From Candidatus Gorgyraea atricola (GTDB taxonomy: Bacteria > Omnitrophota > Gorgyraeia > Gorgyraeales > Gorgyraeaceae): 64,000 bases of DNA. The DNA lies in NCBI GenBank assembly GCA_030765235.1, contig JAVCCW010000010.1, positions 30,907 to 94,906 of the forward strand, read 5' to 3'. How positions within the stretch are numbered: the stretch's first letter is position 1; every line of letters begins with the position of its first letter. Of this stretch, positions 8,571 through 55,716 are shown one piece after another. Position numbers and translations under genes: made by a program. The notes beneath the pieces were generated by a model that was not told the DNA's origin, searched no databases, and saw only the letters and a list, made by a program, of their open reading frames with translations.

Positions 8571-9644
8571 TTAAAATCCCCAGTTCAGGCTTGTATTAAA
8601 ACTAACGTCAGGGCTGGAGGCAGCGCTGATATTTTCAACAACCGCAAAATTCCACGACACGTCGGTCCTTTCCTTCCACCTATAATTAAAACCCAGGGCC
8701 CAGTCATGCGCGTCATTGTCCAGAGGATTTGTCTGGCTATATGAATAAGGCGTATTGTTGCCGGTCACCTGTGTGACAACAGAAAACCTCTCTGTAAAAA
8801 AATATTCCAGTGCCAGCATGTAAGAATAAAACTCCTGATCGATACCCAGCACTGAGAAAACATCGGGCTTTTCTATTCTCATGACACTGGCACCCGTGTA
8901 GACAAAAAGCCTGTCAAAGAATCTCTTATCTATTAAAATGCCAAAACCATAATCGAATTCGCCGCTCCCGATCAAATCATCCTCATCAGCTGTTGGAAAC
9001 TTGATCGCTGAGCGCACTGATATATTTGGAAAGAGCCAATGCCACTCGCTTTCCCTTAGCAGCTGATATTTAGCAGTTAGCACGACATCACCCAGGCCAT
9101 GCGTAGAAGTCTTTTGTTGTATGAGGTAGTTGCCGGGACCATACTTGAAACTGTAATCGAATTCGTACGACCCTTGACGCTCTCTTGAGCGAGGCGTCCT
9201 TGCTCCAATTCCATCCTCAAAGCCTTCTATAGCATTATCCAGATATCCACTGCACAGGCCTATATAAGGAACCTCTAATCCGATTTCCAGATTATCGTAA
9301 ACACCATACCTGAAATCAAGCGTGATCCTCTGGACCTCTAAGTCGATCTGGATGTCATAAAAAGATGAGATCGGCGTAAACGCGCTTACAGTGATGTTTG
9401 AAACAGTATAATCCGCATCTATTACAAATCTATTTCTCTCTACAACGCTTGCCTTGTCCGGCACCATCTGTAAATAGAAAAGATATAGCGGCATTTGATT
9501 TCGTATGGCTACCGGGCCGATCCCTGATACCTGATAAGATTCCTCATCTTCTTCTGGTTCATATAAATATGCAAAAGCACTGTCCAAAGACAAAAAACAA
9601 CTGACAAAAAACAACACCACGATAGCTGCCAAAAATACCTTCAT
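8571..9644 (-). CDS. Outer-membrane beta-barrel protein (start refined to MKVFLAAIVVLFF... signal peptide), C-terminal NWGF
   Basis: ORF track start at 9785 gives a non-signal N-extension; internal ATG at 9644 gives a classical signal peptide; C-terminal aromatic residue. Confidence 0.45.
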   Translation of the reverse strand: MKVFLAAIVVLFFVSCFLSLDSAFAYLYEPEEDEESYQVSGIGPVAIRNQMPLYLFYLQMVPDKASVVERNRFVIDADYTVSNITVSAFTPISSFYDIQIDLEVQRITLDFRYGVYDNLEIGLEVPYIGLCSGYLDNAIEGFEDGIGARTPRSRERQGSYEFDYSFKYGPGNYLIQQKTSTHGLGDVVLTAKYQLLRESEWHWLFPNISVRSAIKFPTADEDDLIGSGEFDYGFGILIDKRFFDRLFVYTGASVMRIEKPDVFSVLGIDQEFYSYMLALEYFFTERFSVVTQVTGNNTPYSYSQTNPLDNDAHDWALGFNYRWKERTDVSWNFAVVENISAASSPDVSFNTSLNWGF

Positions 9645-9702
9645 CCATAACCTCCGCGATCTTGAAAATGGTCTAATTATATGGTATACTTGTATTAGCC
9701 GA

Positions 9703-9790
9703 TAAGGGCAAACCCTAGAGAAATCAGGGGGCGCAAAGCCAACAGGCCTAAGTCCTTTAAACGGATATGGCGGCTGGGTTGCCAAGCGAT
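9703..9790 (+). ncRNA. Candidate c-di-GMP-I (GEMM) riboswitch aptamer, plus strand, no downstream plus-strand gene
   Basis: GGGCAAACC-cuagaGAAAucaggg-GGCGCAAAGCC followed by a hairpin carrying the canonical 11-nt GAAA tetraloop receptor halves CCUAAG ... UAUGG, then GGGUUGCC. This matches GEMM-I architecture (tetraloop hairpin, ACGCAAAGCC junction, receptor hairpin). Confidence 0.5.
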
Positions 9791-9802: not shown

Positions 9803-11311
9803 CTAATCGCCTTTATCGGCCTTTCTTATTGTCTTCCCCATGATTTCAGAAAACTCATCCTCCAGCACAAAAAAAGGAGCTACGTTGCACCCGGTAAAAC
9901 TCTTTACCTTATCTATTGCCTCAATATCCTTGGGATTTAACATAGCAAGGCTTACTACGTTCTTTTCCTTCTTAACTGGAATTACCCCATAATTCTTGAT
10001 CAAATCAATAGGTATCTTGCTTATAACTGCTTTTAATTCTCCATTCTGCTCTAATCTTCTTACATCAAAATGCGGGACATTCAACTGTGACTCCAGGGCC
10101 CTTGCTATGTCGCCTGAACTCGCCAAGCCAAGACCTACAATGCTCTGACCGATCTTCTGGCCTGTTGACCAATGTTTACTTAAAGCTGCCTCGAGCTGCT
10201 GAGAAGTCAAAACATGTGATTCAACCAGTATCTGGCCCAATGGCTTGTGCCTGAATTCAGGCACCACCTTAGAGGCCTTTTCAGAGACAATAGACTGATG
10301 CGAAGCTAAAAACTCTTTCTTCATCATGGTCCTGCGATTTACAAGAAAATTACTTCCAGGCAAGGCCTTCAGGTATCCCTTTATCTCAGCGATTATCTCC
10401 ATGAGCTCCACGATATTTTGAAATCCATAATCTTTATTATTAGCTATTGCCACAGAAAGGCTCATGAGCGGTGTATTTGTTATGTTGCCCCTTCTATCCT
10501 TTGAAATGATATGGCCCAGACCCCTGTCTTCTTTGGTGTAATGAAAAGGCATAAGCCTGTTAAAGCTCAATATGGACTCCGATGCTATTAATCTGTCGCG
10601 CTCAGGCGTGGTCACCACTACAAAATCATCGCCTCCAATATGCCCCACAAAGTCATCCTTGTTCCCGTATTTCTTAACTGTCCTTGAAACAATATGGGCA
10701 GTCTGGCGAATAACCGCATCGCCCTTCATGTAGTTATATTTGTCATTAAAGGATTTGAAGTTATCAATGTCGTAATACGCGACAGAAAAAATCGCGTCCT
10801 CTTCGATCTTTGACTGGATAACCTTTTCTATGCGTCTATTTCCAGGGAGCCTTGTGAGCGCGTTCGCGTGCAGCTGGTGCGTAGTCCTGCGCAGCGCCAT
10901 TTCCATCCTGACCTCCAGGTCAATAGGATCAGGTGGGTTCGCGATATAATCGTCCACGCCCTGCTCTATCTCGAGCATGCGCTTGCGTATCTGTTTTTTA
11001 TCAATGAGTATTATTACCGGTATGTGTGCGGTAAGAAAATCTTCTTTCAAGACCTTTGAGACCTCGAAACCGTCTATCTTCGGAATATTGCAGTCTATAA
11101 TAATAATATCAGGGTGCGCTCGCCGAACCAGCTCAAGCACAGATGCCCCATCTGAAGCAATAATAACTTCGTAATCCCAAGCATTTAAAAGATAAACAAG
11201 TATATCTACTATCTTTTGCTCATGCTCTGCTAACAATACCTTTTTATTCAGTCCGTTCATAAGATCATTATAACGTACAATATTTCCAAGGTCAACATTT
11301 ACCCCACCCAA
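9803..11311 (-). CDS. Response-regulator receiver + non-canonical GGDEF (GGDDF) + C-terminal MshEN/T2SSE_N (c-di-GMP-binding) domain protein
   Basis: 502 aa; REC with phospho-Asp context IIIIDCNIPKIDG; GGDEF-like domain with GHIGGDDFVV; C-terminus LEAALSKHWSTGQKIGQSIVGLGLASSGDIARALESQLNVPHFD resembles GspE/MshE N-terminal domain. Confidence 0.7.
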   Translation of the reverse strand: MGGVNVDLGNIVRYNDLMNGLNKKVLLAEHEQKIVDILVYLLNAWDYEVIIASDGASVLELVRRAHPDIIIIDCNIPKIDGFEVSKVLKEDFLTAHIPVIILIDKKQIRKRMLEIEQGVDDYIANPPDPIDLEVRMEMALRRTTHQLHANALTRLPGNRRIEKVIQSKIEEDAIFSVAYYDIDNFKSFNDKYNYMKGDAVIRQTAHIVSRTVKKYGNKDDFVGHIGGDDFVVVTTPERDRLIASESILSFNRLMPFHYTKEDRGLGHIISKDRRGNITNTPLMSLSVAIANNKDYGFQNIVELMEIIAEIKGYLKALPGSNFLVNRRTMMKKEFLASHQSIVSEKASKVVPEFRHKPLGQILVESHVLTSQQLEAALSKHWSTGQKIGQSIVGLGLASSGDIARALESQLNVPHFDVRRLEQNGELKAVISKIPIDLIKNYGVIPVKKEKNVVSLAMLNPKDIEAIDKVKSFTGCNVAPFFVLEDEFSEIMGKTIRKADKGD

Positions 11312-52445: not shown

Positions 52446-54995
52446 TTACATTACTTCAATTATAGGAACTGGAGTTGCATTTACTGTGGCCACCAGCGTA
52501 TCAACTGCAGTATTGCACTCAGTACCTGAATCATCCTTAACTGTTAGAACCACTTTATAAAGGCCTATGCCCTTGTAAGCATGCCTTACCTTTGTCCCTT
52601 GCGCAGTTTGGCCATCACCAAAATCCCATGTATACGTAAGGTTATCATTATCTGGATCAAATGAATCTGACGCATCAAATTCAACCTCGTCATTAACGCA
52701 GATCAAAAGATCCCCGCCAGCCTCTGCTACAGGAGGTGTGTTTACGTTAAGGTAATGCACCTTTGTCGAGCCTGAGCAATCTGAATTTTTACCATCATCA
52801 ACAAACAGCGTTGCTTTATAGAGCCCACCCTTTGCATAATTATGCTTTACGTTAGCTCCGCTTTCAGTAGTACCATCGCCAAAATCCCAAACATAATCCA
52901 GCTTATCTCCGTCAGGATCGTTCGATAACGCGCCGTCAAACTTTATCCCCTCGTCAACACAGGCAATGTCCTTAGAGCTTATGTCTGCGGTGGGATTGGA
53001 GTTGACATTCACTGAAATGGCATCTGTCGCGCTTGAACACTCTGCGCCAGCACCATCATCTACCTTAAGAGTAGCATTATAAAGGCCTCCTTTTGCATAC
53101 TGATGAGAGACCTTTTTTCCTCTGGCTGTTTTTCCATCGCCAAAATCCCATAGATAGCTAAGAGTATCCCCGTCATTGTCAAACGACAAAGAGGCATCAA
53201 ACTCTGCCTTCTCTGTCAGGCATATGTTTATATCGTTTCCTGCGTTAGCCATTGGCGCCCTGTTTAAGTTAACAAGCTTTGTCGCAGTTGACTTATTGCA
53301 ATCTGTATAGGTATTGTCGGTAACAAGGAGTTTAGTCGCGTACTCTCCGCCCCTTTCATACCTATGAGTGACTACCTTGCCTTCCTCTGTCTCGCCATCA
53401 CCGAAATCCCAGACATAAGTCAGATTATCATTATCCGCGTCCTTTGACTTTGACGCGTCAAAAGTGACTTCCAGGGGATCATTAGGATCTTTCTTGCACA
53501 ACATTATATCTTTACCCGCGTCAGCGATAGGTGCGGTATTTACTGCTACATTTAATCTATCCACGCCTGTATCGCACATGGTCCCTGAATCATCGACTAC
53601 AGTAAGCGCGACTTGATAATCTCCGCCTTTAGCGTATTTATGAGAGACCTTTACGCCTTCAGCTGTCTCGCCATCGCCAAAATTCCATTTGTATGTCAGA
53701 TTATCTTCGGGACTATCTGTTGACTGTGTGCCATCGAATAGTATCTCTGTATCAACACAGGTCACATTAGGGCCGTCTGCTATAGCGCATGGCGGCTGAT
53801 TGACTTTTACGACCTGCTGAGTCGAAGCTGTATTACAATCCACCTCTGAGGCATCTGTAACTGTCAGCTTGACAAGATATTTTCCAGCATCCTTATAGGT
53901 ATGCATGTTCTTTAACTGTGTGCTGGTAGTACCATCACCAAAATCCCAGAAATACGCAAGGGTCTGATCATCTGGATCGTAAGACTTTGAACCATCAAAT
54001 GTAAATGTATTACATGAAAGCTTTGACTCCATCCATGGCTCTTCCTTTGCCTTAGCCTTAGTAGGCCGCTCAACAAAGACCCTCTTAGGTCCTCCTGCGC
54101 CAGGTGTAAAAAATACAGGAACTGCCGCGCCATCGCCTGTTGTCAGATACATCGCCATGTTTGCATTGGGCTGCCTGTCCTTTGTTATTTCATATACCCA
54201 TCTCTTGCCAGCATCAGATGGCAGAACATCTACTTCAGTATTTGCCCATATGCCGGTCCCAGAACCTTTTATACTGTAAGAACGAGATGCGCTTACGAGC
54301 TCTATATCTCCTCCGGTCGCGTCCAGATCATAATTGTACTCGATTATCTTTGCCGCGTCCGCGGGTATTGCGGGATAAAGCGCCATCTTTGTTCCGCGCT
54401 TCTCTGATAGTCTTAATGAAAGCGCGTAGCTGAATGCCTCCATTGTATCCGGTGATATCTCAAGGGCAAAGACATTGTTGTCATCCCCTGACAGCCCTTC
54501 AGCAACTATCTTAAAATATCTGAAATTTCCTACTTTCTCACCCTTGTCCGCTTCTATAGGAGAAAAGTGATAAAACTTTTTGTCATAGGATTCATCTTCT
54601 CCGAACTCCTGGGAATCCAGAAGCGTACCTTCAAGAAAATCTACGATCTTTGCCTCGCTTATCCCTGCTATGGATGAATACGCTTTCTTTCCGCCAAAAA
54701 TAGAAAAGCGGGTCGAGGTATTCCATTTTCCACTCTTTTCATCAATATAATCACCGACATCAGGATCATAGATGGATATTTCTATGTTACCAGTGTAATT
54801 CTCAGGAACTCTCAAGAATACGACTTGGGGCGCCTTTTTTGCGCCATAACTTTTTCTTCCATCCTCGCCAAAGGTATATAAATACCTGAGCTTACTCTCT
54901 TCTGGTGGTATTCTATAGCAAAGAGCATCCTTTACTATAGCAAAGCTTAAAAACAACACTGATGCGATTATGATATGCAATGTCTTCCTGCACAT
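52446..54995 (-). CDS. Secreted protein with at least seven tandem PKD domains
   Basis: 849 aa; signal peptide; repeated [YT]xWDFGDG[TQE]T blocks at about 85-95 aa spacing. Confidence 0.75.
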   Translation of the reverse strand: MCRKTLHIIIASVLFLSFAIVKDALCYRIPPEESKLRYLYTFGEDGRKSYGAKKAPQVVFLRVPENYTGNIEISIYDPDVGDYIDEKSGKWNTSTRFSIFGGKKAYSSIAGISEAKIVDFLEGTLLDSQEFGEDESYDKKFYHFSPIEADKGEKVGNFRYFKIVAEGLSGDDNNVFALEISPDTMEAFSYALSLRLSEKRGTKMALYPAIPADAAKIIEYNYDLDATGGDIELVSASRSYSIKGSGTGIWANTEVDVLPSDAGKRWVYEITKDRQPNANMAMYLTTGDGAAVPVFFTPGAGGPKRVFVERPTKAKAKEEPWMESKLSCNTFTFDGSKSYDPDDQTLAYFWDFGDGTTSTQLKNMHTYKDAGKYLVKLTVTDASEVDCNTASTQQVVKVNQPPCAIADGPNVTCVDTEILFDGTQSTDSPEDNLTYKWNFGDGETAEGVKVSHKYAKGGDYQVALTVVDDSGTMCDTGVDRLNVAVNTAPIADAGKDIMLCKKDPNDPLEVTFDASKSKDADNDNLTYVWDFGDGETEEGKVVTHRYERGGEYATKLLVTDNTYTDCNKSTATKLVNLNRAPMANAGNDINICLTEKAEFDASLSFDNDGDTLSYLWDFGDGKTARGKKVSHQYAKGGLYNATLKVDDGAGAECSSATDAISVNVNSNPTADISSKDIACVDEGIKFDGALSNDPDGDKLDYVWDFGDGTTESGANVKHNYAKGGLYKATLFVDDGKNSDCSGSTKVHYLNVNTPPVAEAGGDLLICVNDEVEFDASDSFDPDNDNLTYTWDFGDGQTAQGTKVRHAYKGIGLYKVVLTVKDDSGTECNTAVDTLVATVNATPVPIIEVM

Positions 54996-55164
54996 ATGTT
55001 ACCTCCTTGTTTGTTTTTTGTTCCCAATTACTTAATAAGTATTATAAAGTATTTAATCTAACATGTCAACAAAAAAAATAACTATTTTTTAACGTTATTA
55101 TACGATTATAGCTTGTTTTTTACGGTATTTATGGCATACTTTAAGTAGAAACAAGTAAATAATA

Positions 55165-55325
55165 TGGAACGACAAAGGCAAACCACTTGAAAGAGTGGGA
55201 CGTCATGAACCACAGAAGGTTCATGATCCCGTACTTGAGCGAAGCGAATAGTACGGGGCAAAACCACGGGCCCTGAGCAAAGCCAACGAAGTTGGCTGCG
55301 TCGAAGGGTGGCCGGGTTACCGAAA
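55165..55325 (+). ncRNA. Candidate c-di-GMP-I (GEMM) riboswitch with enlarged internal insertions, 5' leader of rlpA-like gene
   Basis: AAAGGCAAACCACUUGAAAGAGUGGGACG matches 25/29 of the Vibrio cholerae Vc2 core; ...GAGCAAAGCC...GGGUUACCGA present; two inserted perfect hairpins (ucaugaacc/gguucauga; cccguac/guacggg); ends 5 nt before ATG 55330. Confidence 0.55.
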
Positions 55326-55329
55326 CCAT

Positions 55330-55716
55330 ATGAAGAAACTCATAATTATAGCACTAACATTATCCCTCTTATCCGTCTTTCCAGGCAATGCTGGCTCAAC
55401 TCACGCTATATATAAAGGTACAGCATCATGGTATTCCCAGACTGATCCTGGAATCTTAGAGACAACTGCCAACATGGAGATCTTTGATGATTCAAAGCTA
55501 ACATGTGCCATGTGGGACCTGCCTTTTAATACCCTTCTAAAAGTCACGAATCTCGATAATAATAAATCTATATATGTAAGGGTAAATGACAGGGGTCCTG
55601 CTAAGAGACTAGTGAATCGTGGCAGGATAATAGATCTCTCAAAAAGGGCATTCTCTTATTTAGACGATCTAGGTAAAGGGTTGATTAAAGTCAGAGTGAA
55701 GATTGTAAAGCTATAA
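55330..55716 (+). CDS. RlpA-like double-psi beta-barrel (DPBB) secreted protein
   Basis: 128 aa; signal peptide; GTASWY ... NTLLKVTNLDNNKSIYVRVNDRGP ... GRIIDLSKRAF, hallmark of RlpA/3D-domain DPBB proteins. Confidence 0.75.
   Translation: MKKLIIIALTLSLLSVFPGNAGSTHAIYKGTASWYSQTDPGILETTANMEIFDDSKLTCAMWDLPFNTLLKVTNLDNNKSIYVRVNDRGPAKRLVNRGRIIDLSKRAFSYLDDLGKGLIKVRVKIVKL

Follow-up and report, generated by a model that had tools for sequence, protein, structure and literature searches.

A probable c-di-GMP-I riboswitch with a four-way junction at its P2 base in the leader of an RlpA-family gene of Candidatus Gorgyraea atricola

In this work, we analyzed the leader of an RlpA-like gene in a 64,000-nt stretch of DNA from Candidatus Gorgyraea atricola, hereafter referred to as the window. 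The element located at 55162-55331 (+), in the 5' UTR of a gene encoding an RlpA-family DPBB protein, is very likely a genuine c-di-GMP-I (GEMM-I) riboswitch. This assessment is made from the sequence and applies jointly to the riboswitch, to the four-way junction that two inserted hairpins (PA and PB) build into it and to the translational control that we infer for it. The riboswitch class, its ligand and its role in 5' UTRs are known; the four-way-junction architecture appears undescribed, as our literature search returned no four-way junction or extra hairpins in GEMM-I, although Rfam full alignments might show the insert. The same search returned no link of GEMM-I to rlpA or to the Omnitrophota.

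Aptamer core, inserted hairpins and regulated gene

The predicted core, downstream element and hairpins are housed in the 334-nt gap that separates ORF 55330-55716 from a divergent PKD-repeat gene (52446-54995, -). In the list that follows, the helix designated P2 corresponds to P1 of Rfam and of Weinberg 2007. L007 and L008 are the loci of the two closest orthologues by protein identity to the window (87.5% and 85.2%, respectively), and R1 is a covariance model built from 24 insert-bearing GEMM-I RNAs, without the window and its twin L138.

55162-55331 (+): complete GEMM-I core, with P1, P2 with its GAAA loop, and P3
55162-55167 and 55170-55171 (+): 5' strand of P1, outer AUAUGG and inner CG, from the MFE and centroid structures with the pairs checked
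55177 (+): equivalent of G20 (Vc2 numbering), from its place in the RF03167 and R1 alignments
55177-55202 (+): GGCAAACC-ACUU-GAAA-GAGU-GGGACG, read from the sequence
55178-55202 (+): P2, comprising G21, C22, AAA loop, 6-bp stem, GAAA tetraloop, GAC loop and G45
55203-55226 (+): PA, the first inserted hairpin, UCAUGAACC/GGUUCAUGA, absent from L007 and L008 and aligned in R1
55227-55258 (+): PB, the second inserted hairpin, UCCCGUACU/AGUACGGGG, from the fold, R1 and the comparison with L007 and L008
55259-55261 (+): C46, A47 and A48
55262-55318 (+): P3, from the fold, the R1 alignment and a base-by-base check
55314-55323 (+): GGGUUACCGA, read from the sequence
55319-55331 (+): A91, C92 (55320) and the 3' strand of P1 (CG 55321-55322 and CCAUAU 55326-55331)
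55330-55716 (+): gene for a secreted RlpA-family DPBB protein of 128 aa (PF03330, TIGR00413)

The original prediction had placed a GEMM core and its downstream element in this leader, with two extra perfect hairpins inserted. All the quoted parts were found on the + strand, and so were the two hairpins between them. PA has nine Watson-Crick pairs and a 6-nt loop (ACAGAA). The 9 bp of PB are eight Watson-Crick pairs plus a closing U.G, and its 14-nt loop contains a GC/GC mini-stem. The exact figure of 25/29 given for the match to Vc2 was not reproduced; the 26-nt P2 block is identical at 24 of 26 positions to what we take to be the Vc2 sequence.

Every pair of P1, P2, P3, PA and PB was confirmed base by base, and the 196-nt leader folds with -69.7 kcal/mol (z = -6.7), a stability that none of 200 dinucleotide shuffles attained. 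The first hairpin of RF01051 is present at 55178-55202 (2-bp stem, AAA/GAC loop, 6-bp stem and GAAA); PA and PB split its 2-bp stem, both pairs of which are still possible (G55178-C55259 and C55179-G55202). The second hairpin, for which we looked for an A-rich linker, a bulged A, a purine-G bulge and a 3' GGNUNCC, spans 55259-55321 (CAAAACCACGGGCCC...GGGUGGCCGGGUUACC). Its P3 is made up of AACC/GGUU, a bulged A, CGG/CCG, a GG bulge and GCCC/GGGU, with a distal hairpin GCCAAC-GAA-GUUGGC. The equivalents of G20, A47 and C92, the ligand-contacting positions of the Vc2 crystal structures, are G55177, A55260 and C55320 in the alignments to RF03167 and R1, that is, the canonical c-di-GMP set. In Vc2, A47 is the intercalating A and C92 pairs with one G of the c-di-GMP ligand. 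The element ends at the AUG of the same-strand ORF 55330, and the orthologous leaders are recognized family members. The predicted c-di-GMP-I identity is thus upheld: the helices and the three pocket positions are intact, and the insert-free leaders of L007 and L008 pass Rfam (RF03167) with 67.8 and 65.8 bits, respectively.

The 56-nt PA + PB insert sits between G45 and C46, where it interrupts the 3' side of the two-pair stem at the base of P2. C46 (55259) pairs with G21 (55178) and thereby closes a perfectly paired four-way junction of G45, PA, PB and C46, whose fourth arm is the G21-C46 pair adjoining the ligand; the junction is one base pair away from the ligand pocket. We defined here a four-way-junction GEMM-I subclass by two hairpins between G45 and C46, a junction free of unpaired nucleotides and a match to R1. 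In the window, PA and PB are flush with the junction and R1 matches at 55167-55327 with 57.1 bits (E = 2.5e-12 over 64 kb, both strands), PA and PB being aligned as predicted. A tandem or double aptamer at 55162-55331 was rejected, as there is a single set of core motifs.

The target had been described as an RlpA-like DPBB protein, a description that we retain in part. DPBB_1 (PF03330, 59.6 bits) is the sole domain, and the protein passes TIGR00413 with 89.8 bits (cut-off 82.15), the match being confined to the DPBB half. Its closest solved relative is PA4485 (PDB 4avr, E 4.4e-15), M1 and K2 are nearly invariant among 32 homologues, and public records name the product as an RlpA-family protein of Candidatus Gorgyraea atricola, Omnitrophota. 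Other marks of RlpA are absent: no SPOR domain was found in the 128-aa protein, the signal peptide MKKLIIIALTLSLLSVFPGNAGS has no lipobox Cys, and the RlpA equivalog NF007953 scored 56.7 against a cut-off of 201. A role in peptidoglycan remodelling, which rests on the DPBB/RlpA-family assignment, would be a reasonable reading.

Orthologous leaders and the sign of control

A genome scan for relatives of the protein encoded by ORF 55330-55716 yielded 80 loci, nearly all of them from Omnitrophota. A covariance model built here detected a GEMM-I, on the same strand as the gene, in at least 36 of these 80 rlpA-like loci; one of them (L036) has it ~1.8 kb upstream of the rlpA-like gene, and the others are adjacent leaders. 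Rfam was passed by 15 of the 20 loci tested. In Omnitrophota, c-di-GMP-I riboswitches therefore routinely target the RlpA-family DPBB gene. L001-L006 are contigs of the same organism, 100% identical to the window and thus uninformative. The L007 and L008 leaders align with that of the window save for one clean 56-nt gap, which falls between GAC(G) and CAAAACC. Besides this gap, the L008 leader shows few substitutions and that of L007 also two short deletions. Compensatory changes between the window and L008 are found in P2 (CCACUU/GAGUGG in the window, UCAUCU/AGAUGA in L008) and in P3.

Upstream of the aptamer, conservation points to one putative promoter:

55113-55140 (+): putative promoter, with -35 TTGTTT (55113-55118), a 16-nt spacer and extended -10 TGgCATACT (55132-55140)

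The orthologous leaders L007-L016 keep the TGGCATA(C/A)T block in the same position; a strict consensus promoter scan listed no + strand promoter. Transcription would start near 55147.

The aptamer runs into the start codon, as the last two bases of the P1 3' strand (CCAUAU, 55326-55331) are the A and the U of the AUG. No Shine-Dalgarno (SD) sequence was found in the 20 nt before the AUG at 55330, and there is no terminator; an SD is present at about half of the crude gene starts in the window. Since P1 pairs the AUG, the 30S landing zone lies within P3/P1 and there is neither SD nor terminator, the ligand would be expected to control the initiation of translation. P1 is worth only about 0.9 kcal/mol of the MFE, so that its formation is plausibly ligand-dependent. 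In the mechanism that we propose, c-di-GMP would bind as it does in Vc2 and lock P1, and the locked P1 together with P3 would bury positions -20 to +2, the landing zone of the 30S subunit, blocking initiation in the manner of an OFF switch. Repression at high c-di-GMP is the most likely outcome, its sign being the weakest step of the proposal and one that cannot be read off the sequence.

Most relatives have the aptamer followed by an intrinsic terminator and a G-rich SD. In L010, L012, L014, L016 and L030, folding pairs a conserved 5' segment, UAGAGACAAC, with the GUCUC(U) found directly before the AUG; this long-range AGAGAC/GUCUC helix encloses both aptamer and terminator (the leader ends at about 2501 in each locus). 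These features suggest that the terminator-bearing relatives may combine transcriptional and translational control. The terminator, the SD and the long-range helix of the relatives are lost in the window, L007 and L008, where the AUG marks the end of the aptamer.

The opposite sign must be weighed here, although we consider it rather unlikely: c-di-GMP would turn translation on, e.g., by competing away another fold in which the AUG is hidden. In the best structure without P1, the AUG sits in a local hairpin (UAUGA/UCAUA), and the energy is nearly the same (-68.8 vs -69.7 kcal/mol). In addition, the upstream GAAUA of the terminator-bearing relatives resembles, by eye, the 3' arm of the terminator and could act as a ligand-stabilized antiterminator. 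The local AUG hairpin, however, consists of only five AU-rich pairs, and burying -20 to +2 in the ligand-bound fold is a simpler way of blocking the 30S subunit. We favor the OFF switch.

Recurrence, covariation and origin of the insert

The enlarged architecture had been called atypical, which is correct with respect to the Rfam consensus; it is no one-off, however, but belongs to a recurrent, covarying subclass. We scanned metagenomes with the pattern GGCAAACC-N(10-14)-GGGACG-N(36-66)-GCAAARCC, which returned at least 120 stretches, and removed canonical riboswitches and chance matches before counting the class. A true P2 hairpin together with an insert at G45/C46 is present in at least 37 distinct RNAs, metagenomic or genomic. 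Among the matches listed, 31 of these 37 have two hairpins that leave no nucleotide unpaired on either side of them or in between, as against 4 of 41 pattern false positives taken as the flush two-hairpin control. Flush hairpins totalling at least 10 bp occur in 29 of the 37 real inserts (likewise among the matches listed) and in 0.7% of shuffled inserts.

Covariation was scored on a trimmed pseudo-alignment that retains five junction-proximal pairs per hairpin and has the loops swapped for GAAA. In this pseudo-alignment of the class, 98.2% of the cells are paired, and double-sided compensatory changes are seen in all five pairs of PA and in four of the five pairs of PB. The covariation score was 0.762, compared with 0.193 for the shuffles (none of 500 reached the real value) and at most 0.13 for slid controls. 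The pairing at positions 1-3 of PA and PB was partly selected by the choice of split, whereas the unselected positions 4-5 pair in 25-30 of the 31 sequences. Under R1, class members score about 42-73 bits, with 48-68% GC, and the 57.1 bits of the window element fall within this range; the canonical riboswitch at 9697 obtains 34.6 bits under the same model, with PA and PB deleted.

The two hairpins are found at the same site as in the window in four other Omnitrophota rlpA leaders (L019, L024, L028 and L039), and one recurring hairpin, AUGAACC...GGUUCAU, occupies the PA position in the window, L024 and L087 and the PB position in L156, L160 and L167. The junction-proximal pairs are G/C-rich, and the PA and PB loops have no conserved motif across the class. 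The tetraloop and receptor features obey the usual type 1/type 2 rule with an insert or without one; because the rule holds in both cases, PA and PB are not a substitute for the tetraloop-receptor contact. Products of the genes located 3' of class members include DPBB proteins, a Flp pilin, a type IV pilin-like protein, a TPS exoprotein, an HD-domain (HD_5)/GAF/PAS protein, a GH1 enzyme and an aspartyl protease. This set is a typical c-di-GMP regulon, an argument for continued sensing of c-di-GMP by the class and against a restriction of the module to rlpA.

A bolder reading, less likely than not, is that PA and PB mark an undescribed and widespread GEMM-I subclass, in which they would constitute a selected, portable module that alters folding or on-off kinetics or adds a second input. 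We speculate that such a peripheral module would act by coaxial stacking, tuning folding or ligand kinetics with specificity unchanged. Alternatively, the riboswitch may be real and PA and PB a tolerated insertion without function, so that it would work exactly like its insert-free orthologues. This alternative would accommodate the L007 and L008 leaders, insert-free but otherwise near-identical, the lack of a conserved loop motif and the indifference of the type 1/type 2 rule to the insert. It is nonetheless unlikely: it does not readily explain two flush hairpins at one site in most of the distinct RNAs of the class, their compensatory changes or their GC content, and a neutral insert would not retain a perfectly paired junction across such divergence.

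With regard to the origin of the insert, the L007 and L008 proteins are 80.5% identical to each other, a lower value than that of either one vs the window. Because the window protein is nearer to both of them than they are to each other, a single and recent gain of the insert in the window lineage would, by parsimony, be preferred over two losses. PA and PB would be dispensable for the basic function of the riboswitch, because the closest orthologues do without them. As the presumed recent gain in the window lineage suggests, the module could move from one paralogous riboswitch to another through recombination in the invariant flanks of the core, and an exchange of this kind with another insert-bearing GEMM-I would be an attractive source for the copy in the window. 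A blastn-short search of the window and 200 loci gave no further copy of PA, of PB or of the 56-mer, same-organism contigs excepted, and on these grounds an origin from a mobile element or repeat was rejected.

Other arrangements of GEMM-I were also observed. The L046 rlpA leader (about 1235-1500, +) has two extra hairpins inside P3 and not at G45/C46. At L094 1699-1795 (-), a complete GEMM-I appears to be nested in the apparent P3 of the 5' half of another GEMM-I (GGGACG-CAAAGCUGCGGACCUACGGG... followed by the second aptamer), a layout that is also found in the metagenome contigs L130, L137, L169, L183 and L204. Besides, L131 1742-2084 (-) contains three tandem GEMM-I aptamers in about 350 nt.

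Curated models, ligand specificity and comparison with known systems

The original prediction had named cmsearch with Rfam RF01051 as a check, which the element fails. At the gathering thresholds, the scan of the 64-kb window returned nothing at 55165-55325, and only the canonical c-di-GMP-I riboswitch at 9697-9786 and a tRNA elsewhere. An E-value scan of 55050-55450 returned a sub-threshold match to RF03167 (c-di-GMP-I-GGC) that spans 55168-55325 with 34.7 bits, the cut-off being 59. RF01051 scored below these 34.7 bits, was suppressed in the E-value scan and lies under its own 35-bit cut-off. The shortfall is due to the 56-nt insert, since the insert-free orthologues reach 66-68 bits. The RF03167 alignment itself is faulty, as it places the P3 5' strand on AACCAC inside PA and leaves 92 nt in a local end. 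RF01051 handles insert-bearing RNAs through a local end that swallows the true 3' strand of P2 together with PA and PB, and the module is therefore outside the curated consensus. Most class members tested pass the 35 bits of RF01051, whereas the window element fails.

As for the ligand, membership of RF03167 was taken to need at least 59 bits and a G after GACGC (the A47G equivalent), the marker of the GGC variant going by the Rfam consensus. This position is an A in both the window (55260) and L008, and the variant was rejected; RF03167 is the best-scoring model because its seed resembles these leaders (P1 flanks ACGAnAAAGGC and CCGAA). Neither does the element look like GEMM-Ib: these c-GAMP sensors have an A in place of the G at position 20, and 55177 is a G. 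It is very unlikely that the enlarged junction shifts the ligand specificity, e.g., towards another cyclic dinucleotide. Such a shift would be in line with a junction one base pair from the pocket and with a variant model as top Rfam match; on the other hand, the discriminating position is A and not G, position 20 is G, unlike the A of c-GAMP sensors, and the genes 3' of class members are classic c-di-GMP targets.

A decayed, non-functional GEMM-I remnant broken by the insertion would agree with a score under the Rfam gathering thresholds, but it is extremely improbable in view of (i) the intact helices and three pocket nucleotides, (ii) the structured insert, flush with the junction, (iii) the identical sequence in six independent metagenome contigs, and (iv) the class-model match of 57 bits. 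There is next to no likelihood that the region encodes instead a small minus-strand protein, the 62-aa ORF 55141-55329: the open frame exists, and public metagenome annotations of L001-L003 list it as a gene, but it has no Pfam family on record, the 56-nt indel among orthologues is not divisible by three, the substitutions are RNA-compensatory and the frame lies wholly within the covarying RNA structure. Both this ORF and 55106-55267 were rejected as coding. The annotations at L001 1765-1953, L002 1748-1936 and L003 1540-1728 are almost certainly spurious, and the minus-strand "terminators" at 55284-55269 and 55198-55183 are the reverse complements of P3 and P2.

Elsewhere in the window, the canonical c-di-GMP-I riboswitch at 9697-9786 (+) scores 68.8 bits. 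It has no plausible + strand ORF on its 3' side (only ORFs of 50-57 aa), is divergent from a DUF3187 gene (8571-9644, -) and faces the 3' end of a convergent REC-GGDEF-MshEN gene (9803-11311, -). It may control a transcript antisense to this diguanylate cyclase-type gene. Upstream of it there is an extended -10-like box, TATGG(T/C)ATACT, in common with the rlpA leader. Crude ORFs of at least 200 aa are on the - strand in 47 of 48 cases, the rlpA-like gene and both riboswitches being among the few + strand features of the window. A sigma-70 consensus (TTGACA-17-TATAAT, 12/12 positions) at 55069-55041 (-) faces the divergent PKD-repeat gene.

The c-di-GMP-I riboswitches are among the best-studied classes and bind their ligand extremely tightly and slowly. 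A recurrent natural four-way junction by the pocket offers a ready comparison between native insert-bearing and insert-free orthologues, and with it a way of learning what peripheral helices contribute to the tuning of a second-messenger sensor. Inserts of this kind are handled badly by curated models, which miss the window element and misalign others; because of this, c-di-GMP regulons are under-counted in uncultured phyla. In Omnitrophota, secreted RlpA-family DPBB proteins rank among the most frequent c-di-GMP targets under riboswitch control, a hint that remodelling of the cell envelope may be governed by a second messenger in a phylum without genetics.

In comparison with known systems, the window element has the same P1/P2/P3 core as Vc2 and RF01051, with GGCAAACC...GAAA...GGGACG, the CAAA linker, GGGUUACC, the G20/A47/C92 set and a location in the 5' UTR. 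Vc2 has also been reported to act on translation. The window element differs from both in that the two-pair base of its P2 is split at G45/C46 by the 56-nt two-hairpin module, whereas the first hairpin of GEMM was described as a continuous 2-bp + 6-bp stem with a nearly invariant AAA linker (Weinberg 2007, PMC1950547). RF03167 is the top model for the window and its orthologues, with which it has the above P1 flanks in common, but the A at the variant position makes the window and L008 elements canonical G/A/C aptamers. The regulated protein resembles PA4485 of Pseudomonas aeruginosa and the RlpA family in its stand-alone double-psi beta-barrel domain, and it differs from true RlpA by the lack of SPOR and of the lipoprotein Cys and by a score below the E. 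coli-type equivalog cut-off. Finally, the other insert-bearing leaders (L019, L024, L028, L039 and at least ~30 metagenomic RNAs) resemble that of the window in the site of the insert, its two hairpins and the G/C-rich junction pairs; they differ mostly in having a terminator-type platform, whereas in the window the aptamer is fused directly to the AUG.
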